Source: Candidatus Limnocylindria bacterium (GTDB lineage: Bacteria > Chloroflexota > Limnocylindria > Limnocylindrales > CSP1-4). Taken from it: a stretch of 64,000 bases of DNA. Made by a program: the position numbers and the translations under genes. The stretch covers positions 7,258 to 71,257 of the forward strand of contig JBGPIH010000001.1 in NCBI GenBank assembly GCA_041484785.1. The letters are read 5' to 3'. The notes beneath the pieces are model-generated. The model was given only the letters and a program-made list of their open reading frames with translations, made no database searches and had not been told where the DNA came from. Positions 3,560 through 44,447 of the stretch are shown here, one piece after another (the stretch's first letter is position 1; each line of letters opens with the position of its first letter).

Positions 3560-3823
3560 GCAACGCTTGACAACCGTGGCACGAGACGGACCGACGGGAG
3601 AGCATTCGCCAGCCGGCCGAGACGCCGATCTATCAGCCTGTTCTCAGCCGCCATTCATATCTCTCCGCCACCGTGTCGCGTGGAACGTCCACAGACGAGG
3701 CGGTCATCGCCAGGGCCTTGACCGAACGGCCGCAGTTGATCGAAACGCGGTCTGCGTCATATACTCCCTGGGAGTATTGAACCACCGACCAGAGAGCGCG
3801 CCACGAGCGGGAGATGGAACCTC

Positions 3824-4330
3824 ATGCTGGATCTTCAGTTGACCGCCGAGCCAGTCCAGGCCGACACGGTCAAGGCCGGCTACAGCTGCCCGTGCGGGTG
3901 TACCCCAGCGACCACCTATCGACGGGGGAGCGCGGCCGCGACAGAGGGCTGCTGCTGCGGGAACGAGTTCGCGGTCGGACCCGATGCGGAGAGCCACGTG
4001 CACGCTCCCACCGGGTTCCAAGTCCTGACTGACTCACTTATGGCTCCATGGGGCGACCGACTGCCGGTGGCATGGGCGATCGGGCCGTCGACTCACGATG
4101 AACCTGAGCACGCCGCAGTCGGGCACAGCCATCACGACCCCGAAGCGGGTGCGGGCACGACCACCGATCCCGTCTGCGGCATGACGATCGACCCCGAGGC
4201 GTCGCGATCAGACGGGCTACACAGTCGCCACCACGAGGCCGACTACTTCTTCTGCGGCAAGGGCTGCAAGCTCGAGTTCGACGAGGACCCCGCGCGGCAC
4301 CTCGACCCGTCCTACGTTCCATCGATGTGA
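3824..4330 (+). CDS. YHS/TRASH-domain metal-binding protein with Cys-rich and His-rich N-terminal region
   Basis: C-terminal DPVCGMTID...YFFCGKGCKLEFDEDP is a YHS signature. N-terminus YSCPCGCTP...GCCCGNEF and HSHHDPE look like metal-binding clusters. Lies directly upstream of the HMA/CopA genes. Confidence 0.8.
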   Translation: MLDLQLTAEPVQADTVKAGYSCPCGCTPATTYRRGSAAATEGCCCGNEFAVGPDAESHVHAPTGFQVLTDSLMAPWGDRLPVAWAIGPSTHDEPEHAAVGHSHHDPEAGAGTTTDPVCGMTIDPEASRSDGLHSRHHEADYFFCGKGCKLEFDEDPARHLDPSYVPSM

Positions 4331-4339
4331 GGCCACCCA

Positions 4340-4564
4340 ATGACCGCTGAGACGACGACGGCCGCCGGGGTCCGCTTCCCGGTGGAGGGCATGACCTGCG
4401 CCTCGTGCGTGAACCGCATCGAGGGGTACCTGCGCAAGACCGAAGGCGTCGTCGAGGCGAACGTCAACCTCGCGACGGAGACCGCATCAGTACGCTTCGA
4501 CCCGTCGGCCGTCGATCTCGACGGGCTGCGGGCTGCGGGCCGCGGTGGAGGCCGCGGGCTATGA
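4340..4564 (+). CDS. Heavy-metal-associated (HMA) domain, CopZ-like; probably first HMA repeat of CopA separated by a +1 frameshift
   Basis: [17 protein letters not shown]...VRFDP is an HMA fold with the MxCxxC motif. It is near-identical to the HMA domain inside the downstream ATPase. Its frame is lost at 4530..4545 by one extra base, or a 7-nt unit, in gggctgcgggctgcgggcc. Confidence 0.7.
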
Positions 4565-7022
4565 GGCGCGGATCGACCGGGCCGAGGTGACGGGTCCCAA
4601 CCGGCAGGCGGTCGAGATCGCCTTCCGGGCGCCCGAGGGCAGCCTTGCCGGGCCGCGGGCCTTCGCCCTCGACATCGAGGGCATGACCTGCGCCTCCTGC
4701 GTCAATCGGATCGAGCGGTACCTTCGCAAGGTGGACGGGGTCGCCAAGGCCAACGTCAACCTCGCCACGGAGCGTGCGACCGTCGTCGCGGGGCCCGAGG
4801 TGACCCTCGACCAGCTGATCGCCGCCGTCGAGGCGGCCGGCTACGAGGCCAGGCTGCTCGTCGATGCGGCGCCGGCGGTGGCGGCACCGGCCGCGCAGGC
4901 TACGACCGAGCCATTGGAGCCGCAGGCCGTCAGCCGCGAGGCTACCGCCGCGCCCGAGACGAGCTTCCAGCAGCGCCACCTCGCCGACACCCGGCGGCGG
5001 CTGATCGTGGCGGCCATCCTCACGACCCCGCTCCTGTTGGGTCTGGCGTCCATGACGATCGCGCCGTTCCTGCCGTCGTTCCTCACCAACCCATGGCTTC
5101 AGCTCGGCCTCGCGACCCCGGTCCAGTTCTACGCGGGCTGGCCGTTCTACAAGGGCGCCTGGAAGGTCGCCCGCCACCGGGCGACGGACATGAACACGCT
5201 CATCGCCGTCGGGACTTCCGCCGCGTACTTCTACAGCCTCGCCGCGATCCTCTTCCCGGGCTTCTTCCAGGCGGCGGGCGTCGCGACCGAGGGGCGCCTG
5301 CCGCTCTACTTCGACACGTCCTCGGCGATCGTGACGCTCATCCTGCTCGGCCGCTTCCTCGAGGCCCGAGCGCGGAGTCACACCTCTGACGCGATCAAGA
5401 AGCTCATAGGCCTCCAGCCGCGGACTGCGCGCGTCCTGCGCGCCGGGGGCGAGGTCGACATTCCCATCGAAGACGTTGTCCGGGGCGACATCGTGCTCGT
5501 CCGGCCGGGCGAGAAGGTCCCCGTCGACGGGATCGTCCAAGACGGTCGCTCGGCGGTCGACGAGAGCATGGTCACGGGTGAGCCGATCCCGGTGACGAAG
5601 GAGATGGGCGAGGAGGTCATCGGCGGGACCCTCAACACGCTCGGCAGCTTCCGCTTTGAGGCGACCCGTGTCGGGCGTGACACCGTCCTCGCGCAGATCG
5701 TTCGGCTCGTCCAGGAAGCCCAGGGTTCGAAGGCGCCGATCCAGCGCCTGGCCGATGCCGTGACCGGCTACTTCGTTCCGGCGGTCCTCGGCATGGCCGC
5801 CCTGACCTTTGTCGTCTGGTTTGTCCTGGGTCCCCAGCCGGCGTTCAACCTGGCGCTCCTCAACATGGTCGCCGTGCTCATCATTGCGTGCCCTTGTGCG
5901 CTCGGGCTGGCGACGCCGACCTCGATCATGGTCGGGACGGGCAAGGGCGCCGAGAACGGCGTCCTCTTCCGGAACGCCGAAGCCCTCGAGCGCCTGCACA
6001 AGGTCCGCGCCGTCGTGCTCGACAAGACCGGCACACTGACCGAGGGCAAGCCGCGCGTCACGGACGTCGTTCGTGCCGATGACGCGCCGGGAGAGGATGA
6101 GCTTGTCGCCCTCGTCGCCGCGGCCGAGCGTGGTTCGGAACATCCGCTGGGAGAGGCGATCGTCCGCTTCGCTCGCGACGAGCGGTCGCTCACCTTGGCC
6201 GATGTGACAGCGTTCGAGGCCGTGTCCGGCCAGGGGATCGCGGCGACCGTGGCCGGTCGTGCCGTCCTGGTCGGTCGTCCCGCGTATATGGACGGTCAGG
6301 GAATCGACCCGGGTCCCCTGCGCGGCGCTGCGGACGAGCTGGCCGCATCCGGCAAGACGCCCGTGTTCGTCGCGGTCGACGGCCGACTGGCCGCAGTCAT
6401 CGCGATCGCCGACACGCTCAAGGCCGGTTCGGTCGAGGCAGTCGCCGAGCTGCACCGCCTCGGGCTGGAGGTGGCCATGCTGACCGGCGACAACGAGACC
6501 ACGGCGCAGGCGATCGCCCGCCAGGCCGGCGTGGATCGGGTCCTGGCCGACGTGCGCCCCGACGAGAAGGCGGCCCAGATCAAGCGGCTCCAGGGCGAAG
6601 GCAAGCTCGTCGCGATGGTCGGTGACGGGATCAACGACGCGCCAGCTCTCGCGCAGGCCGACGTCGGAATCGCGATCGGGACCGGCACCGACGTGGCCAT
6701 CGAGTCGGGCTCGGTGACGCTCATGAGTGGTGACCTGCGGGCGCTTGTGACGGCGATCTCGCTGTCTCGGGCGACGATGGGCAACATCAAGCAGAACCTG
6801 TTCTGGGCGTTCGCCTATAACGTCGCCTTGATCCCGCTGGCAGCTGGGTTCTTCTATCCGTTCACGGGCATCCTGCTCGATCCCATCTTCGCAGCCGGGG
6901 CCATGGCGCTGTCGTCTGTGACCGTCGTGTCCAACGCGTTGCGTCTGCGTCGCTTCAGCCCGCCGGCTGCCGGTCGGTCGGCATCGCCTGGTCGCCCGAA
7001 GACCATCCCCGCGAGCGCCTGA
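4545..7022 (+). CDS. copA: Cu(I)-translocating P1B-type ATPase
   Basis: HMA domain (GMTCASC), TGE, CPC ([13 protein letters not shown]), [21 protein letters not shown] and MSxSS motifs. Confidence 0.9.
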
Positions 7023-7087: not shown

Positions 7088-7846
7088 CTACCCGGCGACC
7101 ACGCGAACGCCGACCACGATCGCGGCCCCGATGCCGGAAAGAGCGACGAGGGCGGGTCCCTGTCGAGGGTCGCGATGCTGGGCCTCGGGCAGGAGGTGCC
7201 CGGCGCCAACTGCCAGGAACACGCCCGCGAACCAGGCGAGGAGCAGCCCGAGCGTTGCCGGAGGGATCGAGACGAGGGTGCTGAGGGCCGCTCCCGCGGG
7301 CGGAGCAAGCGCGTCGAGGACGAGCAGGCCGACGGCCAGGCGTTCCCCGCGCGCGGCCTCGAGGGCCAGGGTGACGACGTTCATCCCGTCGGCGAAGTCG
7401 TGCGCGAGGACGGCCAGAAGCACGACGAGCCCGACCGTCGTTCCGGCCTGGAAGCCGAAGCCGATCGCGAGCCCGTCGAGCGTGCTGTGGAGGATCAGGC
7501 TCAGTGGCGGCACGATGGCCAAGAGCGGCGCCTGGGATCGGGTCTCGGCAGGTGCTGGAGTCCCGCCCGGTCGGTCCCCGTGCTGGGCGTGCTCGAAGCT
7601 GGCCTGATGGATGAATGCCTCGATCAGGCTGAACGCGACGAACCCAACGAGCGCGCCAATCCCCACCGCGATCGCGGAGCCTGAGCCGACGAGCTCGTGC
7701 GCCTCGGGCAGGAGGTCGGCGACGGCGGTCGCAACGACGACGCCCGCGGCGAGGGCCATGAAGGCGTGCAGGCGATGCCTCAGCCGCAGCGCGGCCATGC
7801 CGCCAGCGAGCGTCGAGAAGAACGGCAGCACGGCCGCCAGCGGCAC
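7088..7846 (-). CDS. ZIP family metal transporter (ZupT-like)
   Basis: HDFADG and other ZIP TM signatures. N-terminus VPLAAVLPFF aligns to the start of ZupT-type proteins. Exact start uncertain; the ORF track extends to 7963. Confidence 0.8.
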   Translation of the reverse strand: MPLAAVLPFFSTLAGGMAALRLRHRLHAFMALAAGVVVATAVADLLPEAHELVGSGSAIAVGIGALVGFVAFSLIEAFIHQASFEHAQHGDRPGGTPAPAETRSQAPLLAIVPPLSLILHSTLDGLAIGFGFQAGTTVGLVVLLAVLAHDFADGMNVVTLALEAARGERLAVGLLVLDALAPPAGAALSTLVSIPPATLGLLLAWFAGVFLAVGAGHLLPEAQHRDPRQGPALVALSGIGAAIVVGVRVVAG

Positions 7847-7851
7847 GTCGG

Positions 7852-10029
7852 CTAGCCGCCAGACCCTGGGGTTTGCGCATCGTCCGGGGCGACGGCCTCG
7901 GCGCGGTGCGGCGGACGCAGCTCCGGTTCGCGTTCGGGCAATGATCCGACCAACCGAGCGCACTCCTGTTCGGTGAATGGATCCCCGCCGACCACCGCCA
8001 CCCGGACCGTGGTCGCATCGTAGCGGGCCCAGACGCGCCGACGGGGCGCCAGGAGACTGACCGTCACGCCTACGACCAGCAGGATGGCACCGAGCCAGAT
8101 CAGACCCTGGCCCGGATCGCGCTTGGCGATCAGCCCGATGTAGCTGCTCGGGCGGCGGAACTCGATCCCTATGCTTCCGCCCGGGACGAGGTAGCCGTCG
8201 CCCGTTTCGAGGACGGCTCCAAACGCGATCTGCGGCGGATCGCCGGGATTGGTCGGTGGGCGGACGCCGACGACCGTGAGCTCGGCGACGCCGCCCGCGC
8301 CCTTGGCGAGGAGCAGGTCGAGCGAGAGGTCCGTGCCGGGTACGGCGATGAGGCCTTCGGGCTTTCCGCCGAGCTGGCCGTCGAGCAGGACCGAGCCCGA
8401 GTAGAGGATCTCGCCCAGGCGGTCGCGGAGGTCCAACTCGACCGCCGGCCCGAAGAAGTTCTCGTGGAACGCCCAGCCGTCCACCGAGAGCGGGTCATTG
8501 ACCGTGATCTCCTTGCGCGCGATCTGCTGACCCTGCCGGTAGATGCTCAGGGTCGTCCGGTACTCGAGCGGTTGGCTCGCCGGATCGAAGCGTGCCACGA
8601 AGTCCTCGTTGCGGACGAGGACCGTCTCCGGGTCGCTCGGAAAGCCCGTCGGGCGACCCTCGCCGACCGGCACCTTGAGCGCGGTCTCGTAGCCAAAGCG
8701 CGGCGTCACGATGCCCATCCCAAGCACGAAGAGGGCGAGCGCTCCGTGGCTGACGAGCGACGCGAGCGGCGAAAAGCGATTGCGCTCCGCGAGCAGATGG
8801 GTCACCCCGTCGGCCTGCTCCGTGCGGACGCGGTACCCCGACCGAACGAGCTCCTCCGGCAGGACCCGGCCGTCGAGGCCGTCGAGCGGACCGGTCCGCG
8901 CCGGCACCGACGATCGGAAGAAAGCACGGGCCCGTCGAACTCGCGGCGTCCGGACGTCGCGAACGATGCGCGGCAGCCGCGAGAGCGTGTTCCCGAGCAG
9001 GCTGATCGTGAACAGGCCGACGAGGATCGTGAACCACGAGGAGGTGAAGATCCGGTACAGCTCGAGCCGCTCGAAGATCGAGGCCAGCGGCTGACCGAAC
9101 CGATCGGCGGCTCGCTGGACGGCCGTCGCATAGAGCGCGGGATCGGCTAGCGTCAACGTCCCGAACTGCCCGATCAGGATGGAGAGAATCCCGGCGAGGA
9201 CGGTCAGGCCGAGGAGGACGTTCGCCGTCCGTGCCGACGCGAATGCGTGCCAGGCCCGAAGCGCCACACGCCGGCGTCGGGCGTGCCCGACCACCGCGGA
9301 CGTGGTGAGCCGGGCTTCCCGCGTCGCCACGCTCAGCCAGCCAACGGGCCGACGAGCCGGATACGCACGAACAGCGCGGGCAGTGGTCCGAGACGCACCA
9401 GGTCGCGCTCGAGGTGCATGGCCTCGAACGGGCTCCCGGCGAGGAATACCTCGAGCTCGTCGCGAGTACGCGAACGGCCGCAGGTCGTAGATGAGCGCGA
9501 TCCCGCCCGGTCGCAAGACGCGCGCGATCTCGCTGAAGACCGATCCTGGCTCGACCCAGTGGTGGAGGCTGAGCGTCGACGCGGCGACGTCGAACGTCCA
9601 GTCGTCGAATGGCAGCGCGGCGGCGTCGCCAAGGACGAACCGAACGCGGTCGCCGAGGCCCGCGGAAACAGCCCGCGCGCTCGACGTCTCGATCATGGCC
9701 TCCGCGAGGTCGACGCCGACAATCTTCGCGCCTGGCAGACGCCGGGCGACCTCGAGTGCAACCTCACCGGGTCCGGACCCGAGTTCGAGCACGGCGGAAA
9801 TCCCGGGCATCGCGGCGGCTTCGGGGAGCGACGCGACGTCGTCGGCGACCCGGCGGTACAGCGGCCGAAGGAGGACCGGAGCGACGGCGCTGTAGAGCCG
9901 CGCTCCGCGGGGCGCGAAGATCCCGACTCGCCGGTCGATCGTCCGTGCGAGCCGCGCGAGAGGGCGACGCGCCGCGACAACCAGCGACGCGGTTAGGGCA
10001 AGGACGACGAGACGCGTCGGATGCGGCAT
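7852..10029 (-). CDS. resB: Class I SAM-dependent methyltransferase domain fused in frame to cytochrome c biogenesis protein ResB/Ccs1 (System II)
   Basis: N-terminal ~200 aa carry a methyltransferase glycine-rich motif (VLELGSGPGE...VGVDLAEAM...LRPGGIALIYD), paralogous to 46934..47737. The remainder is ResB-like (ELYRIFTSSWFTILVGLFTISLLGNTLSR, large extracytoplasmic domain, C-terminal TMs). There is no stop between the two parts. Confidence 0.75.
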   Translation of the reverse strand: MPHPTRLVVLALTASLVVAARRPLARLARTIDRRVGIFAPRGARLYSAVAPVLLRPLYRRVADDVASLPEAAAMPGISAVLELGSGPGEVALEVARRLPGAKIVGVDLAEAMIETSSARAVSAGLGDRVRFVLGDAAALPFDDWTFDVAASTLSLHHWVEPGSVFSEIARVLRPGGIALIYDLRPFAYSRRARGIPRREPVRGHAPRARPGASRTTARAVRAYPARRPVGWLSVATREARLTTSAVVGHARRRRVALRAWHAFASARTANVLLGLTVLAGILSILIGQFGTLTLADPALYATAVQRAADRFGQPLASIFERLELYRIFTSSWFTILVGLFTISLLGNTLSRLPRIVRDVRTPRVRRARAFFRSSVPARTGPLDGLDGRVLPEELVRSGYRVRTEQADGVTHLLAERNRFSPLASLVSHGALALFVLGMGIVTPRFGYETALKVPVGEGRPTGFPSDPETVLVRNEDFVARFDPASQPLEYRTTLSIYRQGQQIARKEITVNDPLSVDGWAFHENFFGPAVELDLRDRLGEILYSGSVLLDGQLGGKPEGLIAVPGTDLSLDLLLAKGAGGVAELTVVGVRPPTNPGDPPQIAFGAVLETGDGYLVPGGSIGIEFRRPSSYIGLIAKRDPGQGLIWLGAILLVVGVTVSLLAPRRRVWARYDATTVRVAVVGGDPFTEQECARLVGSLPEREPELRPPHRAEAVAPDDAQTPGSGG

Positions 10030-10032
10030 CGG

Positions 10033-10707
10033 TCAGGAGCCCAGGATCGCGGCGACCCGCTGTTCCATTTGATCGCGGCTCAACGGCCCGAAATTCCGAT
10101 CGCGAATCGCACCTTGGCGGTCGATGAAGTAATGCGTCGGGAGCCCGAACACGCTGTACGCTTCGCTGATCGCGCCGGTCTCGTCCAGCCCGATCCGGTA
10201 GGTCAGGCCGAACTTCCGCGCGTATTCGCGGACCACGTCGGCCGGCTCCTCGATGTCGACAGCGACCATGACGAGGCCGTCCTGCCCGTGGGCGTCGTAT
10301 GTCGCCCGCAGGTCGGGCGTCTCGCGCTGGCAGGGTGGACACCAGGTTGCCCAGAAGACGACCCACACCGGTCGGCCGCGCAGGTCGGCGAGTGCGATCG
10401 GGCGACCGTCGAGGTCAGTCAGTCGGACGTCCTGGCCACCCGATCGTCCGACGAAGTCGGGCGCTGGCTTACCGACATCGAGGCCGGCCGAGCCGCTGCC
10501 CAGGACGTAGAAGCTGGCTCCTGGATCGGACGTCGCATCCACTGCCCCGCCCCCGATCGGGCGGGTCGCGAGAAACAGGACGAGCGCGATGGCGACGAGA
10601 CCGCCGTTGACGATGGCGATACGGCGAATGGGCGAGACGCGGATGAGCCGCGGATTCGTCGGATCCGGTCGGCCGTCCGGCTCGAGGCGAGGGGTGATGT
10701 CGGTCAT
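10033..10707 (-). CDS. TlpA/ResA-like thiol-disulfide oxidoreductase
   Basis: Signal anchor plus WATWCPPCQRE thioredoxin motif. ATG at 10707. Sits immediately upstream of resB on the same strand. Confidence 0.75.
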   Translation of the reverse strand: MTDITPRLEPDGRPDPTNPRLIRVSPIRRIAIVNGGLVAIALVLFLATRPIGGGAVDATSDPGASFYVLGSGSAGLDVGKPAPDFVGRSGGQDVRLTDLDGRPIALADLRGRPVWVVFWATWCPPCQRETPDLRATYDAHGQDGLVMVAVDIEEPADVVREYARKFGLTYRIGLDETGAISEAYSVFGLPTHYFIDRQGAIRDRNFGPLSRDQMEQRVAAILGS

Positions 10708-10777
10708 GAAGTTCTCGGAATTGAAAGCGTCATTCTCGTACGCTACAGGAGTGTAGTAGCCAAGAGGAGTTGGGCGG

Positions 10778-11437
10778 TTGAGGGCTCGATTGGTTAGCCC
10801 TGTCACCGCAGCCGCGGTCGCTGGCGCCACGGTCAGCATCGCGCTGCTCGTTGCCCTTGTTCTGACATGGCCCGTTCCCGGTTCTTCGCCGGCCACACCA
10901 TCAGGCGCAGGCCTCCCCACCGAGACGCCGAGCGCTCGATCGATGCCAGCATCGTTCGCGGCCCAGTCGTCAGCTGTACTGCCCACTGTGCGGCCGTCAC
11001 CGGCCTCGATCGGCCTCAACGTAGGTGACCGCGCACCTGAATTCGAGTTGCCTGGCCTCGACGGCACGAGCCCCCGACTCTCCGACTATCGCGGCCACCC
11101 GGTCTGGATCAACTTCTGGGCGTCGTGGTGCCCGCCATGCCGGACCGAGATGCCGCGGATCGAGGGCCTCTACCTGGAGCACAAACAGGACGGCCTCGTC
11201 GTCCTGGGTGTCGCGGTCCATGACTCGGACGCGGCGATCCGCGCATTCGTCGCCGAGGTCGGCGCGACCTATCCGATCCTGCTCGATCCGGACGGTCGGG
11301 TCGCGGCCGCGTACGGGGCGGTCGCCCTCCCCGTCTCGTTCTGGCTCGATCGTGACGGCATCATCCGCGACTGGATCATCGGCGAGGCGCCGCCCGACAT
11401 CATGACGTCAGCCCTCGACAAGATCCTGTCGCGCTGA
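10778..11437 (+). CDS. TlpA-like thioredoxin-family protein (second paralog, divergent orientation)
   Basis: Signal anchor; WASWCPPCRTEMP motif. Confidence 0.75.
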   Translation: MRARLVSPVTAAAVAGATVSIALLVALVLTWPVPGSSPATPSGAGLPTETPSARSMPASFAAQSSAVLPTVRPSPASIGLNVGDRAPEFELPGLDGTSPRLSDYRGHPVWINFWASWCPPCRTEMPRIEGLYLEHKQDGLVVLGVAVHDSDAAIRAFVAEVGATYPILLDPDGRVAAAYGAVALPVSFWLDRDGIIRDWIIGEAPPDIMTSALDKILSR

Positions 11438-30743: not shown

Positions 30744-30749
30744 CAGGGC

Positions 30750-35210: not shown

Positions 35211-35453
35211 GTGATGTTCAGATTCGTCATCGATCCCGTATGCCAGATGGAGATCCGGCCCGACCAGGCGGTCGCCGTCACTCGGTTCGAGGGCCATCGC
35301 ATCTACTTCTGTAGCGACGGCTGCTACGCGGAGTTCCTCGATATTCCGCACAGCTACGTCGACTGGGATGACCGTCCCAATCGCGACCCGAAGCATCGCG
35401 GGCGACGACTCGATCCGCGCTACGTGCTTTCCGATAGCCCTTCGGATCGATGA
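35211..35453 (+). CDS. YHS/TRASH-domain protein
   Basis: DPVCQMEIRPDQ...YFCSDGCYAEF. Confidence 0.75.
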   Translation: MMFRFVIDPVCQMEIRPDQAVAVTRFEGHRIYFCSDGCYAEFLDIPHSYVDWDDRPNRDPKHRGRRLDPRYVLSDSPSDR

Positions 35454-35605
35454 CGGCGGCCGGCACGTCCAGGCCCGAAGCCGCCTCAACACGAAATCGC
35501 GACAGAATCGCCGGGCTCTGCATACTACAGTAGTGTCGTAGCCCAATGGCGCTACGGCGCTGAGCCGCCAATGTCCGACCCCCAATAGACCCAGCGAGGA
35601 CGAAC

Positions 35606-36805
35606 GTGGACAACCGAGCAGCGCGACGAAAGGCAGCCGCCGCGGCGCGGCGCACGACGAATCGATCGGGGCGGGCGCCGGACGCGGCGACGAGGGCCAG
35701 CACCGGGCGCGGCGACGCGGGCGGGTTAACCACGAGTCCGCAATCCAATCCGTCCGAGGCTGTCGAACCGGAGGCGCTCGTCGTCAGCCACTGGTTCGAC
35801 TCCGGTGACGAAGGTGAATCGTACGCCGCGACCGTTCGGTTGACGGGACGCCGCGTCGACATCCACGGGCTGCCCGGGCCCCATGACACGTTCGTCCAGG
35901 AAGACAAGATCGAGGCGATCGTGCCCGGCAGCGGACCGGTGTCGCTTACCTCATGGGTCTACGGGCTCGAGCCAGGCGATTGGACCGTCGACGCGGAGCT
36001 GTTGCGGTCACATCGTGATCCGGGCCGAGGGAGGCGAACATCCGCCGAGCCGGTCCTTCCCGCGACCTGGTCGTGGCGCCGCTGGGCGCTTTCGACCGGC
36101 TCCTCGGAGGCGGTGAAGACACGCTGGGCGATGGTGGCGCCGTTGGCACGAATGCCCGGGGTCCTCCCCGGTAGCTGGCCAGCCCTTGGCGCCCTCGGGG
36201 CCGTCGTCGCTTTGATCACCCAGGCGGCGATTCTCGAGCACGAGAAGGCCGCTGTTGGCCAATCGCTCCTGGTGTCCCTGATCGCCCTCCTATCCGGGAT
36301 GCTCGGGGCGAAGCTCTGGTACGCGGTGCTGCACCCTGGCCCATGGCGACAGGCGATCCTCGGAGGCTGGGCCGTCGACGGGTTTCTGGTGGTGGCCCCC
36401 GTCGTAGCGGTCGCGGCACTGGTGGCCTGGAATCTGCCCGTCGGTGCCTTTCTCGACGCCGCGGCACCGGGCCTCTTCTTCGGGGTGGCGATCGGGCGCG
36501 TCGGGTGCTTCTTCACCGGCTGTTGCGCCGGTCACATCACCAATTCACGCTGGGGCATCTGGTCCTCCGATCGGAGGGTGGGAGCTCGTCGGGTTCCTGC
36601 CCAGCTTCTTGAATCCACCGCCGGATTGGTGATCGGAGGCCTGGCGGCGACGGCAGTCCTTGGCCACCTGCCACGTCCCGACGGCGCCGTATTCGTGGCT
36701 GCATTCGTGGCGTATCTCCTCGTCCGGCAGGCCCTCCTCCGGGTTCGAGCGGAATCGCGCCAGTTCTCGTGGCGTCGGAGCGTCGCGGTTGCCGAGCGGG
36801 CGTGA
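35606..36805 (+). CDS. Lgt-like (prolipoprotein diacylglyceryl transferase family) membrane protein with N-terminal soluble extension; start uncertain
   Basis: C-terminal ~230 aa with FFGVAIGRVGCFFTGCCAGH resemble the Lgt signature GR[IL]GNF[IL]N.E, but Asn/Asn/Glu are replaced by Cys/Thr/Cys. The N-terminal ~150 aa look like a folded domain rather than frame noise. Confidence 0.5.
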   Translation: MDNRAARRKAAAAARRTTNRSGRAPDAATRASTGRGDAGGLTTSPQSNPSEAVEPEALVVSHWFDSGDEGESYAATVRLTGRRVDIHGLPGPHDTFVQEDKIEAIVPGSGPVSLTSWVYGLEPGDWTVDAELLRSHRDPGRGRRTSAEPVLPATWSWRRWALSTGSSEAVKTRWAMVAPLARMPGVLPGSWPALGALGAVVALITQAAILEHEKAAVGQSLLVSLIALLSGMLGAKLWYAVLHPGPWRQAILGGWAVDGFLVVAPVVAVAALVAWNLPVGAFLDAAAPGLFFGVAIGRVGCFFTGCCAGHITNSRWGIWSSDRRVGARRVPAQLLESTAGLVIGGLAATAVLGHLPRPDGAVFVAAFVAYLLVRQALLRVRAESRQFSWRRSVAVAERA

Positions 36806-36963: not shown

Positions 36964-38109
36964 TCAGGACAGCTCGAGCGGATCGACGAGGCGGCCGCCC
37001 ATCCAGACGCGGAAGTCCAGGTGTGGCCCGGTGGCCCGGCCAGTCGCCCCGACGAGTGCGATCGTGTCGCCCTGGGCAACCTTGTCGCCTCGTTCGACCG
37101 TGACCTTGCTGTTGTGGTTGTAGGTCGAGCGCATCCCGTCCGGGTGCTCGATCTCGACGACGTAGCCGCCGCCGTTGTCCTTCCAGCCTGCCCACACAAC
37201 CGTCCCGCCGGCAACAGCCCGGACCGGAGTCCCCAGAGGCGCCGCGATGTCGATTCCGGGGTGCGCCGCCGAGAACCGGGTGGTCAGGGTTCCGCGAACT
37301 GCGAGCGGCCAGAGGTGGTCGCCCTCTTGAGCCTGGGACGATGCCCGTCGTGTCATCGGGGCAGGGCGAGAGGACGTCGTCCTGGGCGCCAGGCGGGTCG
37401 GCTGAGGGAGGGACGCCATCTTCGAGCCGCCCGGCACCAGAATTCGCTGGCCGGCGACGAGACGGTCGGGATCAACGCCGTCATTCCATCGAAGAATGTC
37501 CGCCAGATCGGTGGAATGTCGCCGCGCGATAGTCCACAGATTGTCGCCCGCTGTGACGACGTGGGTGGGGCCCTTCGGGGCCTTGGGCGGGCTGGCGGAC
37601 CGCGCGGGGGTGATCGTCGGTGACGGGGTCGCCTTGGTTAGCGTTTCGGCCATGCTGGAGGCCGGCTGGACCGGCAAGGCTGTGGACGATGGATTACCTC
37701 CCCGGGCGTCCACAGTCCCGATCGCGATTCCCGGGGATCCGCCGGGGACTGGATCATCAGGCTGGGGTTTGGCTGATCCGCTTCGTCGATCGTCGGGGCT
37801 GAGGCCAGGGGACGGCTCGCCGGGTGACTTGATCGAACCGAAGGCTGTCGCTGGCAGCGGTGACCAGCGCCACGGTGGCGTGGCGCGCGTCACCCCGCCC
37901 GGCCGGAGGGCAAGGACCAGTCCGGCCGCGACGATCACCGGCACCAGCAGGGCTGCCCGCGGGAGCCTGGCCCCCCCGCGCGGGTGCGCCTGGTCGCGAT
38001 GAGCGTGAGCGGGTCGGCCGGTCGAGCGCATCGCGCGCGCGCGGGCCCAGAGCGGGCGAGTGAGCACCGATATGTCCTCCGGTGAGCGGAGTGGAGCCCC
38101 GGCCGGCAC
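36964..38109 (-). CDS. LysM-domain M23 peptidase
   Basis: LysM (HVVTAGDNLWTIARRH...GQRILVPG) plus M23 (GIDIAAPLGTPVRAVAGG...HLDFRV). Start uncertain. Confidence 0.8.
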   Translation of the reverse strand: MPAGAPLRSPEDISVLTRPLWARARAMRSTGRPAHAHRDQAHPRGGARLPRAALLVPVIVAAGLVLALRPGGVTRATPPWRWSPLPATAFGSIKSPGEPSPGLSPDDRRSGSAKPQPDDPVPGGSPGIAIGTVDARGGNPSSTALPVQPASSMAETLTKATPSPTITPARSASPPKAPKGPTHVVTAGDNLWTIARRHSTDLADILRWNDGVDPDRLVAGQRILVPGGSKMASLPQPTRLAPRTTSSRPAPMTRRASSQAQEGDHLWPLAVRGTLTTRFSAAHPGIDIAAPLGTPVRAVAGGTVVWAGWKDNGGGYVVEIEHPDGMRSTYNHNSKVTVERGDKVAQGDTIALVGATGRATGPHLDFRVWMGGRLVDPLELS

Positions 38110-38289: not shown

Positions 38290-38967
38290 TCAGACGAGAG
38301 CCCGACCGCCTGCCTGGCTTCGGCGCAGACGCAGTGTCGTGGCAGCGATCACAAGGAGGCCGATTGCTACGCTCAGCCCGGCGAGGGTACCCGCGGCGAA
38401 CTCCCAGAACGCGGTCGGATAGAGCTGCACGATCCGCTGGGTGGTCGGGTCGAATTGCCAGCCGCCGGCCGGGAAGACGATCTCGTGGAATAGCGTGAAC
38501 AACGCATCGAAGGCGACAACGAGCCCGATCCCGACGGCCGAGAAGATGAGCACGAGCCCGGTCGCGCCCCGCCGGACCGCGCGGAGCGCATCCGGTCCGC
38601 TCATCCCCCGGGTCGTGATGATGACCGCGATCGCGCCCGCCAGCACAAGCCCGAAGAACCCATAGACAACGACACGGACGTCCTGCATGTGAGCCGCCTC
38701 GACCGGTCCGTAGAACGGCGGGCCTCCTGGTGTCGCGGCAAATGTGAACGAGCCTGGTCCAATGAGCAGCTCCTGGACAGACAGCTCAGAGGCTCGTTGG
38801 GCGACCTCGTGCGGCACGCCCAGGATGCCGGCTGAGCCCCCGATCTCGAGGCCGAGGTTCATCACTGGCGGAAGCAGCAGAATGACCGCGGCCGTGCCGA
38901 CGATGACGATTGCGGTGCCGACCCCGGCGATGGTACGCCAAGGTCGGCTGGAGTGGTTGGCAGCCAC
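38290..38967 (-). CDS. DUF1461-family integral membrane protein
   Basis: FTLFHEIVFPAGGWQFDPTTQRIVQLYP motif. Confidence 0.6.
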   Translation of the reverse strand: MAANHSSRPWRTIAGVGTAIVIVGTAAVILLLPPVMNLGLEIGGSAGILGVPHEVAQRASELSVQELLIGPGSFTFAATPGGPPFYGPVEAAHMQDVRVVVYGFFGLVLAGAIAVIITTRGMSGPDALRAVRRGATGLVLIFSAVGIGLVVAFDALFTLFHEIVFPAGGWQFDPTTQRIVQLYPTAFWEFAAGTLAGLSVAIGLLVIAATTLRLRRSQAGGRALV

Positions 38968-39026
38968 TGCGTTTCGTGTCCTTCCCAGGCCGGAGCTGCG
39001 ATTCGGGCGCCTGCCGGCCGGTCTGA

Positions 39027-39212
39027 TCAGTGTCCAGCGTGCCCGCTGTGCTCGTCCTTCGGATGGCCGTAGCTGTGCGGGTCCTTGACGAACGTCTCGT
39101 GGCAGGCATTGCTACAGAAGTAGAACGTCCGCCCTTCGTGCTCTTCCGTGGCGGCGGCGTCCTCGGGGCGGATTTCCATGCCGCAGACCGGGTCCTTCAC
39201 CTTGTCAGCCAT
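39027..39212 (-). CDS. Small YHS/TRASH-domain protein with His-rich C-terminus
   Basis: GGAGG SD before ATG 39212. DPVCGMEIRPED...YFCSNACHETF, ending HPKDEHSGHAGH. The track ORF extends upstream to 39734 without a stop, but that stretch is Arg-rich low complexity. Confidence 0.8.
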   Translation of the reverse strand: MADKVKDPVCGMEIRPEDAAATEEHEGRTFYFCSNACHETFVKDPHSYGHPKDEHSGHAGH

Positions 39213-39720
39213 CTTGGCGACCTCCTTGTGGGATGAGTGGATCAGTCCGGTACGCCGACCAACGGCCGGCCTCCGGTTCCGTGCCGAATCCGTGCCACCA
39301 CGGCCTGAGCGGTGGAACGGCCGGGCCGTCTGCGCGAGGTCGGGGAGGAGCAGCTGTGCCACGTCGAGCGAGCCGTCCTCGAAGCCACGCCGGGCAGCGG
39401 CCATGTAGATCCGCCAGGTTCGGTTGTGGAAGCGAATGGCGGCAAGGTCGCGAGCCCGCGAATGGCGCCGTCCGGAGAGGCGGGCCCGGCGTCGAAGGTC
39501 ACGCGCCGGCCTCGAACCGCGGCGCAATTCGACACCGAGGCGGGCCAGCCGCGGCAGGTCCAGGCCGAGGCGTCGCAGCTTGAACGATCGGCCGGCGTCG
39601 ATGGCCGTCCAGATGTCACCCGCGGGGAAAGCTCGACCGACGAGCGCGAGAGATTCCTGGGCCATCGCCGCGCAACGCCCGACGCGGCCGAGCGGGGACG
39701 CCGATGCTGGCGCGAGAGCC

Positions 39721-42252
39721 TCACTCGGCGCCATAGCGGCGGATTCCTTCGAGCTTTGTGCGCTTCAGGAGCAGCGCGTTGACGGCTACCAGGAAGGAGC
39801 TGCCGGCCATGCTGATCGCCGCGATCTCCGGCCGGAGGACGAAGCCGAAGGCGGGGTAGAAGAGGCCCATCGCGATCGGGAAAGCGACCGAGTTGTAGCC
39901 CACCGCCCAGAAGAGGTTCTGGCGCATCTTGCGGACGGTCGCCCGGCTGAGCGCGATGGCGCCGAGCACGTCGATCGGGTCGCTCTTCATGAGGACGATG
40001 TCGGCAGTCTCCACGGCGACGGCGGTGCCGGCCCCGATCGCGATGCCGACGTCCGCCTGGGCGAGCGCCGGGGCGTCGTTGATCCCGTCACCAACCATGG
40101 CCACGAGCTTGCCGCTCGCCTGGATCTCCTTTACCTTGTCGGCCTTCTGGCCGGGCAGAACCTCGGCGAAGACGATGTCGAGTCCGAGCTCGGCGGCGAT
40201 CCGATCGGCGGTCGCCTGGTTGTCGCCGGTCAGCATCGCGACCTGGATGCCGAGGTTGTGCAGGCGCTCGATCGTTTCCTTCGCGCTCGGGCGGACCGCG
40301 TCGGCGATGGCGATCAGGCCGCCGGCCTCGCCGTCGACCGCGACTCGCACGACCGTGCGACCGGCGCCTTCCAGCTCATCCGCTCGGGACCCCAGCCTGC
40401 CGAAGTCAATGCCGCGGTCGCGCATGAGCTTGGCGTTCCCGACCAGGACCGAGCGGCCGTCGACCTTTGCCTCGAGCCCGTGGCCAGGGACGGCCTGGAA
40501 GTCGGTCGCGTCGACGAGCGTGAGCTTGCGCTCCTTCGCCGAGTCGACGACCGCCTGGGCGAGCGGATGCTCGCTGGAGCCCTCGGCCGACGCCGCCAGT
40601 CGAAGGACCTCATCCTCGCTGACCGGGTTTCCCGCGCCCACGAGCTCGACGACTCGCGGCTGTCCGACGGTCAGCGTGCCGGTCTTGTCGAAGATGACCG
40701 CGCCGATCTTGGACGCCTGCTCCAGGGCGGTTGCGTTCTTGAACAGGATCCCGTTGAGCGCGCCGAGACCGGTGCCCACCATGATCGCCGTCGGCGTGGC
40801 CAGGCCCAGGGCATCCGGGCAGGCGATGATCACGACCGTGATCGCGAGCGTGAGGGCGAAGATGAACGTCGACCCACCGATCGTCAGCCAACCGAAGAAG
40901 GTCACCAGGCCGAGGATCACGGCCGCGGCGACCAGCCACTGGGCGGCGCGGTCGGCGAGTCGCTGGGCCGGCGCCTTCGAGTTCTGGGCTAGCTGGACAA
41001 GCTGCACGATCTGGGCCAGCGCGGTATCGGCGCCGACCTTGGTCGCCTTGAACCGGAATGTCCCGGTTTTGTTGATCGACGCGCCGATGACGTTCGAACC
41101 GACCGTCTTCTCGACCGGCACGCTCTCCCCGGTGATCATCGATTCGTCGACGCTCGATTGGCCATCGACGATGACGCCATCGACCGGGACCTTGTCGCCG
41201 GGCTTGATCAGGACGATGTCGTCGATCACGACCTCTGCGGTCGCGATCTCAACGGGCTCGCCGTTGCGGATGACGGTGGCCTTCGGCGGCGTGAGGTCGA
41301 GGAGCGCCTTCATCGCATTTGATGCGCCCGCCCGGGCCCGCATCTCCAGCCAATGCCCGAACAGGACGAACGTGAGCAGGACGACCGCCGCCTCGTAGAA
41401 GACCTCGCCCTCGAACAGGAACGTCGCGGCGACGCTGAACAGGTAGCCGCTGCCGACCGACAGCGCGACGAGGACCGACATGTCGAGCGTCCGGTTGCGG
41501 AGCGCCCGATACGCGCCGACGAAGAACATCTTCCCGCTCCAGGCGACGGCGGGCGTGGCGAGCAGGAAGGCCAGGATGTCCTTGTCGATCCCGAACGGAG
41601 TGCCGAGGCGGATGCTGAAGACCTCGGTCGCGAGCGGCGAGTAGAGGAAGATCGGGACGGCCAGGATGAACGCCACGATGAAGCGGTTCCGCATGTCGCG
41701 GACCATTTCCTCCATCGTCATCCCGCCGCCATGCCCCATGCCGTGAGCCATCTGGGCCATCTCGCCCTGGACGGGTGCGCCCGCGGCCGCCGCTGCCATC
41801 GCGTGGCCGGCGTGCTCGTCATGGGCCGCAGGCGCCGCCTTCGCCGGAGCCGGAGCCGGAGCGGCCATCGTGTGGCCGGCGTGCGCATGATCGGCTGCGC
41901 CGGGCGTCTCCGCCTTCGCCGGGGCCGGGGCGGCCATCGCGTGGCCGGCGTGTTCGAGCGGCGGCGCGTGTGCGGCACCATGTGCAACCGTGCTGCCGAT
42001 GACGGCCGTCTGCTCGTCCTGGCAGAGATGGCACGGGACGACCTCGCCACCGCAGCGGCAACCGAAGCGCTCGATCAGCGCCCGGACGTCATCCGCGGAC
42101 AGTGCCGTCTCGTCGTAGTGGACGGTCACCGTCTGGGAGACAGGGTTGGCCTCCGCTTGCTCGACACCGCGCTGCCGCTGGAGGAATGCCTCGAGACCCG
42201 TGGCGCTGCTGGCCCGTAGGAGCCCTCCTGCTTCAAAGACTCTGCCCGTCAC
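39721..42252 (-). CDS. P1B-type heavy-metal ATPase (CopB-like) with His/Met-rich N-terminus and CPD transmembrane motif
   Basis: [25 protein letters not shown] and MAGSS motifs. TM6 reads [13 protein letters not shown]; the gat codon was verified on the reverse strand near 40800. N-terminal repeats [13 protein letters not shown] x3 plus a Met/His cluster. Confidence 0.9.
41800..41975 (-). repeat. Three imperfect ~60-bp tandem repeats encoding the His/Met-rich units ([15 protein letters not shown])
   Basis: Repeated ggccatcg(c/t)gtggccggcgtg units read in the sequence. Confidence 0.7.
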
Positions 42253-42525
42253 TGCCTGCTCCGTTCGTGTTGCGTGCGTATGATTGTCGCGCCACTACGG
42301 CGCTGTCGTACATAGAGTCTCATCGACATCGCCAGCGCGTCCGTGGCGGCTTGGTCGATCCTCGGCGTCGAGCCTGAGTCGTCGATGAGGTGAACCTGAG
42401 AAGGCGCAAGATCCACGCCACGTCGCCTTTCGTGACCTTTCTTAGCTTCGATTCAGCGGGGTCTCAGGTTCGGGCCTGACAGTCGGGATTGACGACGCGC
42501 CAGTGACAGAAGAAGAGGTTGATCG

Positions 42526-42729
42526 ATGACACGAACGATCCGGTTGGCCCTCGCCGCCGGCGCACTCTTGGCGCTGCTCATCGGGTCCAGCCCGGTCGCC
42601 GCGGCGGGTGACGGGGCCGCTTACGGCGCCTGCGTCGCCCATCATGCAACCACAGAGGGCGGCTTCAGTGGCGAGCACAATCCCGGGATGCACCTCGGCT
42701 TCTCGGGCTGGTCGGGCTGTCCTGACTGA
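42526..42729 (+). CDS. Small secreted protein (67 aa)
   Basis: GAAGAAGAGG before the ATG; signal peptide; GEHNPGMHLGFSGWSGC. Confidence 0.35.
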   Translation: MTRTIRLALAAGALLALLIGSSPVAAAGDGAAYGACVAHHATTEGGFSGEHNPGMHLGFSGWSGCPD

Positions 42730-42930
42730 CAACTCCATTCGCGTACCCACGGGCGGGCCAGTCACCACCTCCCTTCCGGTGATTGGACCGCTCCCTCCCT
42801 TTGTCCCCGGCACCCCCCGGCCGGGGGACAGGACGGCGGGGCCGGCTCAGCCGGCCCCGCCGTATTTCTTCGCCCAGGTGTTCCCATCGGGTCAGGACCT
42901 GGTTCTCGGACCTACTCAGGAGGGCAAGTC

Positions 42931-43497
42931 GTGGAACCGCTCCTATTGATCATCGCGGCAGCGATCGCCGCGGTCGTCCTCGTCTACGTCGTCCGCATGT
43001 ACAACGGGCTGGTGCAGCGCCGGCTCCGAACGGACGCTGCCTGGGCCCAGATCGACGTCCAGCTCAAGCGCCGGCATGACCTGGTCCCCAACCTCGTGGC
43101 CGCCGTCAAGGGCTACATGGGCTTTGAGCAGGCCGTCCTAACACAGGTCACCGAGGCGCGGGCGAATGCGGTCAGCGCCGGCGCCGCCAGCCCGGCGCAG
43201 GTCGCAGCGGCCGAGGGCGTCCTGACCACAGCCCTCCGATCGCTCTTCGCGGTCGTCGAGAACTACCCGGATCTCAAGGCCAGTCAGAACGTCAGCGCGC
43301 TGCAGGCCCAACTGGCCACGACCGAGAACCAGATCGGGGTCGCCCGTGACGGCTACAACGCGGCCGTGCGCGACTACGACACCGCGATCGCGACGTTTCC
43401 GACGCGGCTCATGGCCGGCTCAATGGGCTTCGCACGGCGGGAGTTCTTCGAGGCCGAGCCGGAGGCACGCGAGGTCCCGAGCGTTCAGCTGCGCTGA
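42931..43497 (+). CDS. LemA-family protein
   Basis: N-terminal TM plus the LemA conserved region (NLVAAVKGYMGFEQAVLTQVTEAR...VENYPDLKASQN). Confidence 0.8.
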   Translation: MEPLLLIIAAAIAAVVLVYVVRMYNGLVQRRLRTDAAWAQIDVQLKRRHDLVPNLVAAVKGYMGFEQAVLTQVTEARANAVSAGAASPAQVAAAEGVLTTALRSLFAVVENYPDLKASQNVSALQAQLATTENQIGVARDGYNAAVRDYDTAIATFPTRLMAGSMGFARREFFEAEPEAREVPSVQLR

Positions 43498-44447
43498 GCT
43501 CCATGCGTCGAGGTTGCCGGTCGGCCAGATTGAACGTCGACGAACTGACTCCGACGCGACCGTAGTAGATTGTGGCGACCATGACCGCGCACGGGCATCC
43601 GTCAGGGAATCAGCTGACCGGCGGTCCGACCCCTAAAGTCGTCGGCGGCAGTCAGTTGATTGTCGACCAGATCATCGTCCCCAACGCCTTCTGGTCAAGG
43701 AGCGCCGCGGTCACTGGCCGGAGCGGGCCATCGGGCCAACTGTTCCCGAGGACGTTTGACTCTTCTGGAGCCATCGTCGCACCGGAGCCCGAGCCGGTCC
43801 GACGCCGGTCGAGAAGGGAGTATTGACGGAGCTCGTCACGGGTGTCGCATGTCTGGCTTCGATCGACTCGGACCGTCCGCTCGACGACCGCCGGTGCCGG
43901 GCGGATCGTCCCTTCCGCGGTCCGCAGCGATGACGAGGACCGAAGACCGCCGGCCGCGGGTCGGCGCTCGGCGGCCATCGAGGAGCCATATCTCTGGCGG
44001 GATCTCCATGCGCCTCTGGAGCCGGACGTACAGCTCGTTGAGATACGCGACGCGCTCGTCGGCGCGACGGTACAGCTCGCCTCCCGCTGGAGCGCTTCGG
44101 CGTTGCGCGACTGCTTCGCGCAGCTGGGTCGCGAGGACCTGCAGGGCGTCAGAGAGCTGCGCAACTGGGTTTCGGGCGGGCAGCGTCACGGTCTGGGAGA
44201 GCGCGTGAGCCCGAGATCGGTCTCCTGGCTGAGTGCGATGGTCGAGCGCGACGTGTTGGCTGTTCATCCGGGTATTGCAGCGCCCGTCGCTGAGATGCCG
44301 ATGAGGCAGACCTGCAAATTGACTGAATGGCGATCCCGGGTCCGACGCGGCGCGGGACGGTCCATCTGGCCGAGGAACCGGCGGGCGTAGGGCGCTCGGG
44401 GCCCTCGACGTATCGCCGCTGCTCTTCCGTGTAGATCGTGTCGGACC

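Follow-up and report, generated by a model that had tools for sequence, protein, structure and literature searches.

A copper-responsive regulatory pair, PetR/PetP, has been described in Synechocystis. PetR is a BlaI/CopY-family factor without the CopY cysteines and PetP is an M48/M56 protease without a sensor domain; in response to copper the protease degrades the repressor, resulting in a switch from cytochrome c6 to plastocyanin, and the core binding site is GACN5GTC (bioRxiv 10.1101/2020.07.31.226407). Autoregulation via inverted repeats is usual among BlaI-family factors (PMC8457756), and the role of BlaR homologues outside the cyanobacteria has been called unknown (PMC10141476). Here, a 64,000-nucleotide (nt) stretch of DNA from Candidatus Limnocylindria bacterium (Chloroflexota; contig JBGPIH010000001.1, positions 7,258 to 71,257), referred to as the window, was analysed. 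It encodes an adjacent BlaI-M56 pair within a region of about 40 kb, in which genes for copper and other metal homeostasis are interleaved with those of cytochrome c maturation (ccm). An 18-bp inverted repeat was found upstream of this pair, the ccm operon, an lgt paralogue, an operon led by a CopB-like P1B-type ATPase (P1B_2) and a gene for a small membrane protein (g04).

The BlaI-family protein (139 amino acids (aa), encoded at 19162-19581) matches Pfam Penicillinase_R with 75.6 bits (cut-off 22.6), and its Protein Data Bank (PDB) sequence matches are 2K4B (DNA-binding domain of a Lactococcus CopY-family regulator, annotated 'Transcriptional regulator'), BlaI of M. tuberculosis and MecI. 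In an earlier reading of this DNA, made without database searches (the sequence-only reading), it had been listed as 'CopY-like'. Its place in the BlaI/CopY family stands, but it possesses no cysteine at all and so lacks the CopY CxCx4CxC site, and with CopY_TcrY it scores 50.4 bits against a cut-off of 122. Its gene overlaps by 4 nt with that of a 250-aa M56-type protease (active-site motif HEEHH) having no extracytoplasmic sensor domain, whose Pfam match lies below the cut-off (25 versus 31 bits). Across 26 homologues of the protease H123, E124 and H127 (HExxH), E164 and C241 are kept and C24 is nearly invariant. Its AlphaFold model (pLDDT 84.7) gave S. aureus BlaR1 as top Foldseek matches with a probability of 0.99, but with both E values (~0.014) and TM-scores (~0.42) being weak.

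Compared by described architecture, this pair matches PetR/PetP. The two genes are adjacent, the putative repressor has no CopY Cys motif, and the protease combines an HExxH core and transmembrane helices with the lack of a C-terminal sensor domain. The genomic theme is also one of copper proteins versus c-type cytochromes, and the candidate operator is an inverted repeat with GAC/GTC half-sites; it contains GAC-N6-GT[C/A], one base wider than the PetR core. The two systems differ in phylum (Chloroflexota here, cyanobacteria for PetRP), in operator (TACGAC-N6-GTAGTA as opposed to GACN5GTC) and in targets, which here would be ccm, lgt, the CopB-like ATPase-YHS-Lit operon and g04, whereas those of PetRP are petE and petJ. 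As a separate observation, a 12-nt block, TCTGCTAGCCTT (19590-19605, minus strand), lies about 10 nt upstream of the blaI ATG and does not resemble a Shine-Dalgarno sequence. It is nearly invariant in five genomes (one substitution each in loci L173 and L176 of relatives, see below), though the M56 proteins are only 49-72% identical.

Alignment of the M56-ccmA spacer of three genomes showed a 23-nt block, CCGTATACTACGGCCACGTCGTA, to be invariant within otherwise diverged DNA, and its half-sites also occur upstream of blaI. TACTAC-N6-GTCGTA with at most two mismatches gave 14 strand-hits in the window against 0.53 expected. The form TAC[G/T]AC-N6-GT[A/C]GTA with at most one mismatch occurs seven times against 0.145 expected (200 shuffles, maximum 2), and all seven sites lie in non-coding DNA, which makes up 14.6% of the window (P about 1.4e-6). 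An operator shared by copper and ccm genes had not been part of the sequence-only reading. GGTAGTAYA, also enriched, was considered as a separate element and rejected, as it consists of one operator half plus a -10-like hexamer. The seven sites, followed by two weaker ones, are as follows:

2990..3007, site 1, AACGACAGCCATGTCGTA, 24 nt before g04
18312..18329, minus strand, site 2, TACTACGGCCACGTCGTA, 21 nt before the ccmA ATG
19624..19641, minus strand, site 3, TACTACCCGCGCGTCGTA, 42 nt before the blaI ATG
35523-35540, site 4, TACTACAGTAGTGTCGTA, 65 nt before lgt
42293..42310, site 5, 40 nt before the start of P1B_2 and divergent to u67
43550, site 6, downstream of LemA
44650, site 7, 82 nt before a 210-aa open reading frame (ORF; 44750-45382) overlapping a lipoprotein gene at its start
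53053..53070, weaker site with two mismatches, upstream of the u199-cytochrome b operon
62196, weaker site with two mismatches, upstream of a cupredoxin gene (Cupr1)

Loci of relatives (L166, L167 and L171 to L176) were found via their Lit-family and M56 proteins and viewed within +/-10 kb of these two anchor genes. The motif recurs there upstream of the same genes: before P1B_2 in L166, L167 and L175, in the same orientation and 40-57 nt from the start (57 nt in L175); before lgt in L167, L171 and L173 (74-142 nt); before blaI in L173 and L174 (26-67 nt); before ccmA in L173 and L174 (20 nt); and before the g04 orthologues of L175 and L176 (45-64 nt). In L176 another site lies 648 nt from lgt, nearer to a PEMT-like gene, and L166 has a degenerate site upstream of cytB similar to that at 53053 in the window. 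The motif is largely specific to the lineage, with 14 sites in 144 kb of relatives versus three in 1.3 Mb of ccmF loci from other phyla. The BlaI-M56 pair itself sits among copper genes in the window and in L173, L174, L175 and L176. In the last two it is not beside ccm; its surroundings are a CsoR gene, P1B, YHS, MerR, a multicopper oxidase and five cupredoxin genes in L175, and YHS, LysM-M23, Lgt, CDF and P1B fragments in L176.

The explanation that we favour, by a modest margin of confidence over doubt, is that the region is a chromosomal neighbourhood of operons for envelope metal homeostasis and cofactor biogenesis in which copper export, the remodelling of lipoproteins and the maturation of cytochrome c are joined in a PetRP-like regulon. 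We infer that the motif is the binding site of the BlaI-family protein, that this protein is a repressor and that the signal is copper. The protein would occupy the 18-bp sites at blaI-M56, ccm, lgt, P1B_2-YHS-Lit and g04, and since these are situated 20-65 nt from the start codons, it probably acts as a repressor. Copper would activate the M56 protease, leading to degradation of the repressor. The cell would then export copper, remodel the N-terminal cysteine of its lipoproteins and raise its capacity for thiol-dependent cytochrome c maturation; copper has been described to impair the assembly of periplasmic c-type cytochromes (PMC4600104). A single copper-triggered regulon of this kind would account for the interleaving of copper and cytochrome c genes. 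The more specific proposal is put forward tentatively, with somewhat more doubt than belief: a PetRP-like, protease-mediated copper sensor of Chloroflexota, with the operator TACGAC-N6-GTAGTA, that co-induces the CPD-type ATPase P1B_2, Lgt/Lit remodelling and the whole ccm operon. YHS1-copZ-copA, a CopRS-like two-component system, MerR and NRAMP-CDF are without the motif and appear to be controlled separately. The separately controlled units proposed are copZA with its own palindrome, the two two-component systems by SHOCT/Met-rich/DUF302, NRAMP-CDF, MerR and the multicopper oxidase.

Several observations weigh against a PetRP-like regulon. The PetR core GACN5GTC is not enriched, occurring 20 times in the window with only one intergenic copy. 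The cop box TACAnnTGTA has three one-mismatch matches in the window against 1.0 expected, none of them in promoters. With neither of these enriched, the assignment of the operator is based on position and analogy. No copy of the motif precedes blaI in L175 and L176, which are the two relatives furthest removed, or P1B_2 in L172. A strict sigma-70 scan around the blaI and ccmA sites found no promoter, and the overlap of the motif with a -10 element is a visual reading of a TATACT hexamer only. The candidate copper-ligand Met pair of PetP is not evidently conserved, the M56 family here keeping C24, D34-P35-M36 and C241 instead. The Lit-family protein and Lgt score far below the curated equivalog cut-offs (30 versus 400 bits for Lit), and the view of the relatives is confined to +/-10 kb around two anchor genes.

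Some of these points are shared by an alternative in which independent operons lie together by chance or weak selection, without coupling, and the 18-bp repeat is the site of another regulator encoded elsewhere, or a promoter element, and is unrelated to copper. The hexamer at ccmA could belong to a lineage-specific promoter, the motif is missing before blaI in the two loci just named, and the window encodes MerR and two two-component systems as further regulators and has a separate palindrome ahead of YHS1. The spacer of the inverted repeat is, however, fixed at 6 nt; the motif is confined to a handful of promoters, with none at the other promoters of the window; its position and orientation are conserved though the surrounding intergenic DNA has diverged; and wherever the BlaI-M56 pair was seen in relatives (L173 to L176) it was among copper genes. 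Juxtaposition without coupling is considered unlikely.

The cytochrome c maturation genes form a complete System I set (ccmABCDEFGH and CcdA, with ResA/TlpA) in canonical order and with translational coupling. CcmA, B, C, E, F, G and H were all above the Pfam cut-off (ABC_tran, CcmB, Cytochrom_C_asm, CcmE, CcmF_C, Redoxin and CcmH), while CcmD was assigned from position and size only. Orthologues in L173 and L174 are 66-94% identical (CcmF 81-83% in both). L174 has the order blaI-M56-ccmABCDEFGH-ccdA-resB-tlpA-zip and L173 the same order up to resB. The difference from System I elsewhere is that this lineage has a ResB-like (System II) protein without CcsA/ResC, a ZIP transporter and the blaI-M56 pair joined to the set. 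In a ccmF-anchored scan of species-representative genomes, in which the matches listed include distant relatives at 40-50% identity, none of the 80 listed ccmF loci of other phyla had ResB-like, ZIP or blaI-M56 attached to ccm. The CcsA/ResC partner characteristic of System II was found beside ResB neither in the window nor in L173 or L174. The ResB-like protein matches Pfam ResB with 171 bits, as part of a fused ORF, and has no NCBIfam match and no significant PDB sequence match.

The fused ORF (725 aa, 7852-10029, minus strand) had been a candidate methyltransferase-ResB fusion protein. This was rejected, as a 2-bp (CG) deletion at about 9465 was seen relative to a 99.97% identical contig from the Joint Genome Institute (JGI), in which the methyltransferase (232 aa) and ResB (492 aa) are two separate genes; the deletion reflects either variation within the population or an error in assembly. 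The S-adenosylmethionine (SAM) methyltransferase of this block (9331-10029) has a paralogue at 46934-47737 that is 53% identical to it and lies 37 kb away beside a pyridoxal phosphate-dependent enzyme.

ATPases of the P1B-3 (CopB) type have a His-rich N-terminus and the motif CPH, and CopA proteins have CPC as a transmembrane motif. P1B_2 has neither, CPD replacing both, and its N-terminus is His/Met-rich with three HAGHxMAAP repeats. When the best 150 representatives of 50%-identity clusters were compared, the seven top-scoring proteins carried CPD, those of them with an intact N-terminus being His/Met-rich there, and below these seven the scores fall to ordinary CPC-type CopA proteins. A CPD subtype (VIc) of P1B-3-like ATPases has been described bioinformatically in Rhizobiales, namely Xanthobacter, Nitrobacter and Bradyrhizobium (PMC5552934), and the best plasmid DNA match of P1B_2 is an ATPase of Nitrobacter hamburgensis X14. 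P1B_2 shares with this subtype the transmembrane CPD, YN(X)4P and an M-x-G-S-S motif in the last helix (MAGSS in P1B_2, MSGSS in VIc), but differs in its His/Met-rich N-terminus, the rhizobial members being described as His-poor (PMC5552934). The CPD subtype has no biochemically characterised member.

P1B_2 is followed by a small YHS protein and a Lit-family membrane protein, an order kept in L166, L167 and L172, while the L171 contig ends just before YHS-Lit. A 235-aa version of the YHS protein (YHS235) was rejected, with an AAGGAGG Shine-Dalgarno sequence preceding an internal ATG and relatives calling 61 aa; it is most likely a 61-aa protein (YHS61). The 508 nt between the P1B_2 stop and the YHS61 start (39213-39720, GC 0.72) hold no convincing gene, and relatives have variable inserts at this position, a 253-aa unknown protein in L167 and an aldolase plus a CMAS-type methyltransferase in L172. 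The Lit-family protein (PF07314/TIGR01906) scores 62.6 bits with Pfam Lit (cut-off 24) and 64.9 with TIGR01906 (cut-off 74.8), and its FxLFH...W.FDP segment aligns to B. cereus Lit (7B0O). A tblastn search of 72,556 plasmids with this protein gave no match.

In Listeria and Enterococcus, copper induces lit2 and lgt2, which are transcribed together with copper-resistance genes, and the explanation offered is that diacyl lipoproteins bind copper via their free N-terminal cysteine (PMC8275575, PMC8689077). The window resembles these elements in having a Lit-family protein and a second Lgt near a copper-exporting P-type ATPase, a metallochaperone-type protein and a multicopper oxidase. It differs in that its genes are chromosomal and conserved in the lineage rather than mobile, sequence similarity is very low, YHS chaperones are present where those elements have CopZ, and the regulator is another one. 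In L172 the gene for a LysM-M23 peptidase lies next to Lit, and in L176 it is close to blaI.

A second ATPase, P1B_1 (4545-7022), is of the P1B-1 CopA type, with an N-terminal CASC HMA domain, CPC449, YN and MALSS, and a TIGR01511 score of 638.9 bits (cut-off 397). The sequence-only reading held that the copper genes are mostly not arranged in textbook operons; this does not apply to YHS1-CopZ-CopA, a near-textbook copZA arrangement. Like the copZA/CopY/CsoR operons of Gram-positives, this block combines an HMA chaperone and a CPC ATPase with an upstream palindrome, the latter being the perfect palindrome ATACTCCCTGGGAGTAT at 3761-3777, 46 nt upstream of YHS1. Unlike those operons, it is led by an extra Cys/His-rich YHS protein, the window encodes neither a Cys-motif CopY nor a CsoR, and the cop box is lacking. 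The palindrome looks like the candidate operator of a different regulator, perhaps CsoR-like, encoded outside the window. In L175 a CsoR gene lies beside the ATPase.

Gene calling relied on codon log-likelihoods, for which a model was trained on the longest ORFs with high G+C at third codon positions, and the calls were cross-checked against public calls on near-identical contigs; domains were assigned by Pfam and NCBIfam scans of the window proteins. The features of the region, with response regulators and histidine kinases abbreviated as RR and HK, are:

3032..3559, plus strand, g04, membrane protein with CPVC in a transmembrane helix and a C-terminal CNRC, weakly MerT-like
3824..7022, plus strand, YHS1 (Cys/His-rich plus YHS), CopZ-like HMA and CopA-type P1B-1 ATPase, from domain scans and motifs
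7088..10839, minus strand, TlpA/ResA-like thiol-disulfide oxidoreductase, SAM methyltransferase, ResB-like protein and ZIP, from domain scans
10943..11437, plus strand, second redoxin with AhpC/TSA-Redoxin fold, from domain scans
11460..18290, minus strand, System I operon ccmA-B-C-D-E-F-G-H and ccdA, from Pfam and 4-nt overlaps
18413..19581, minus strand, BlaI/PetR-like repressor and M56/PetP-like membrane metalloprotease
19875..23759, plus strand, two OmpR-type two-component systems, RR1-HK1-RR2-HK2
23783..26342, YHS63 (minus strand), then SHOCT membrane protein, Met-rich secreted protein, DUF302 protein, lipoprotein u150 and CCAHH membrane protein u171 (plus strand)
27164..30622, plus strand, degenerate HMA-like ORF, ICMT/PEMT-like methyltransferase, NRAMP and CDF
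30750..31614, plus strand, MerR-family regulator with Cys-rich tail and DF-family thioredoxin-like protein
31875..33894, minus strand, TRASH-domain protein and two-domain multicopper oxidase lipoprotein
34185..36805, plus strand, EamA transporter, YHS79 and Lgt paralogue with a 190-aa N-terminal extension
36964..38109, minus strand, LysM-M23 peptidoglycan peptidase
38290..42252, minus strand, CPD-type CopB-like P1B ATPase, small YHS61 and Lit-family membrane protein
42526-42729, u67, divergent to P1B_2
42931..43497, plus strand, LemA, the right end of the interval considered in the sequence-only reading

The gene inventory of that reading proved correct almost item by item. Its two P1B ATPases lie at 4545-7022 (plus strand) and 39721-42252 (minus strand), and its four YHS proteins at 3824-4330, 23783-23974, 35214-35453 and 39027-39212, the first with a Pfam score exactly at the cut-off (30.3 bits); a TRASH protein (31875-32159) is additional. 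The one stand-alone HMA protein, which is CopZ-like, is encoded at 4340-4564, and a further, degenerate HMA-like ORF occupies 27164-27475. The single multicopper oxidase (32740-33894) is of the two-domain type, carries a lipobox and is rich in Met at its N-terminus, the Met-rich module is a secreted protein (24476-24811) with 16 Met in 111 aa and GMMGG repeats, and the DUF302 protein is at 24889-25314. The MerR regulator listed is present (30750-31265), as are the two two-component systems, in the form of two RR-HK pairs, the three divalent-metal transporter families (ZIP at 7088-7846, NRAMP at 28376-29671 and CDF at 29690-30622), the LysM-M23 peptidase, and the Ccm and ResB block, with ResB at 7852-9330. 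Start/stop overlaps of 4 nt were also borne out: 11 ATGA/GTGA overlaps were found, the majority of them within ccm and the RR-HK-RR-HK block; such overlaps are ordinary in high-GC operons. Several members are, as had been noted, without characterised relatives: g04, u150, u171, the Met-rich protein, the CPD-type ATPase and the sensor-less M56 protease.

RR1 and HK1 are CopRS/CusRS-like over full-length alignments, both below the curated cut-offs (238.5 versus 279 bits and 191.5 versus 292.6 bits, respectively), and a curated subfamily scan identified RR2 and HK2 as generic two-component proteins. The MerT match of g04 (E=0.026) is below the cut-off, and its orthologues in L175 and L176 are 73-79% identical. 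The tail of the MerR-family regulator is unusually Cys-rich (CDCSCGQCCGCDACGCVCSCS) and resembles a metallothionein-like extension; its gene overlaps by 29 nt with that of the DF-family thioredoxin-like protein.

The region is therefore, as had been described, a dense cluster in which genes for the homeostasis of copper and other metals are interleaved with those for cytochrome c maturation, and the term 'mosaic' holds in the sense of swapped cassettes, with content differing among relatives. The further claim, that the locus is an accessory metal-resistance island, is not supported: composition is flat, there is no mobility signature and the sub-blocks are conserved beside the same flanking genes. 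A horizontally acquired 40-kb island absent from close relatives is consequently regarded as very improbable. In its favour, the window has NRAMP-CDF-MerR-TRASH-multicopper oxidase where relatives have an HMA-FtsX-FtsX-ABC cassette, and NRAMP homologues (56-75% identity) are mostly in unrelated contexts; an NRAMP-anchored metagenome scan (80 loci) showed almost no synteny, with shuffled co-occurrence in the group of about 70% identity. A P1B ATPase was within 10 kb in only five of the 80 listed ccmF loci of other phyla, and in other phyla copper-resistance clusters including lit2/lgt2 are often mobile (PMC8275575).

On the other side, the window has about 69% G+C (0.66-0.73 throughout), and the tetranucleotide distance between region and flanks (0.0062) is less than the null mean of 0.0077 +/- 0.0016 from circularly shifted controls, so that no compositional deviation is seen. 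Scans of the window found no tRNA, no riboswitch or other RNA (Rfam, all families), and no long flanking repeats or insertion sequences. The long repeats present are paralogous gene segments only, the two P1B ATPase genes forming inverted repeat segments of 75%. No integrase or transposase was found by Pfam scans of the called genes of the window, or in the 7.5 kb further left, where the JGI contig encodes VanW, an extracytoplasmic function sigma factor with an adjacent gene, and DUF4760. Among plasmids, coverage of the region does not exceed about 5%, with matches confined to conserved ATPase segments, and the lineage-specific operator ties the genes into what would be a native regulon.

Sub-blocks were present in all relatives seen, with varying order and cassettes, each kept at 50-90% identity beside cytochrome b, cupredoxins, thioesterase and u120. 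EamA-YHS79-Lgt and Lit-YHS61-[variable]-P1B_2 occur in L166, L167, L171 and L172 (YHS79 was not detected in L166). SHOCT, Met-rich, DUF302, u150 and u171 occur in L166 and L171, beside RR-HK-RR-HK in L166, and the SHOCT-to-u171 block is also conserved in L176. In relatives a 3.1-kb FtsX-FtsX-ABC cassette (with a YHS-fused ATPase) follows HMA, with ICMT next in L167 (15521-19533), whereas in the window (27164-28118) the degenerate HMA-like ORF runs directly into ICMT, overlapping it by 8 nt; this junction indicates a clean loss or gain of the cassette. With its sub-blocks lying beside the same flanking genes in relatives, the region is, as judged from gene order and composition, native to the lineage, with conserved modules, varying order and optional cassettes, rather than a recently acquired island.

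The P1B_2 operon directly adjoins cytochrome b in L166 and L167, with three cupredoxin genes there in L166 and thioesterase in L167, while in the window cytochrome b, cupredoxins and thioesterase are 7-21 kb to the right of this operon. The adjacency in relatives favours another explanation, which is not fully exclusive of the coupled regulon favoured here: copper supply rather than defence, in which the ATPase, YHS/HMA chaperones, Lgt/Lit and Ccm would assemble a cupredoxin/cytochrome respiratory chain and BlaI/M56 would balance copper- against haem-based carriers, as PetRP does. The cytochrome b and cupredoxin genes of the window (11-21 kb to the right) are preceded by the weaker operator-like sites at the cytB operon and Cupr1, five cupredoxin genes surround blaI-M56 in L175, PetRP governs a cytochrome/cupredoxin switch (bioRxiv 10.1101/2020.07.31.226407), and lipoboxes are present on several window products (the multicopper oxidase, u150, g01 and u263). 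Parts associated with defence are, however, present (the CopZ-CopA operon, the Met-rich multicopper oxidase, a Met-rich periplasmic protein and the CopRS-like system), the cupredoxin and cytB sites have two mismatches each, and no c-type cytochrome gene was seen in the window. Copper supply as the main function is held to be doubtful, though it deserves more weight than the other alternatives.

Cytochrome b in the window is accompanied by three to four small membrane or secreted proteins and two cupredoxins (53241-57103 and 62245-63610). One of the cupredoxins has a CDICCGG...M motif, CuA-like minus the histidine. Relatives keep this cytochrome b-cupredoxin set next to the CPD ATPase, and it may represent a respiratory module not yet characterised.

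Three public copies of the window sequence were found: the JGI metagenome contig Ga0534156_0000087 (99.97% identical, reaching 7.5 kb further left than the window), contig JBGQBR010000013.1 of an NCBI metagenome-assembled genome (99.95% identical, spanning window 20,144-52,437) and short Logan contigs. In P1B_2 the window differs from the public copies by a few single-nucleotide polymorphisms. Homologues at 57-80% identity carry the NCBI name 'Chloroflexi bacterium', including GWC2_73_18 (unclassified Chloroflexota). The JGI (59.9 kb) and NCBI (32.3 kb) contigs both stop at about 52,437-52,445, inside a glucan phosphorylase gene (50388-52907) through which the window reads, and this shared end suggests strain variation or an assembly-breaking repeat. 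The segment at 43500-46900 has lower GC (0.64-0.65), poor coding potential and no homologue in any related locus; it holds the two operator-like sites at 43550 and 44650, together with a lipoprotein gene at 45369-46142 that is weakly paralogous to g02 (1014-1733).

Judged by its genes alone, the region is a copper and metal homeostasis cluster of an ordinary kind, though an unusually rich one; the shared operator gives a testable reason for the interleaving of its genes. If the proposed regulon is real, it would be the first case in which ccm expression is wired to a copper sensor and the first functional PetRP-type system outside the cyanobacteria, extending this switch to a distant and largely uncultured phylum. 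Cysteine-dependent maturation outside the cytoplasm would then be what cells protect first under copper stress, and one regulon would join two vulnerabilities to copper, namely the assembly of c-type cytochromes (PMC4600104) and the free N-terminal cysteine of diacyl lipoproteins (PMC8275575, PMC8689077). It would also provide a genomic handle on CPD-type P1B ATPases, small YHS proteins, g04 and the ResB-like proteins that accompany System I.

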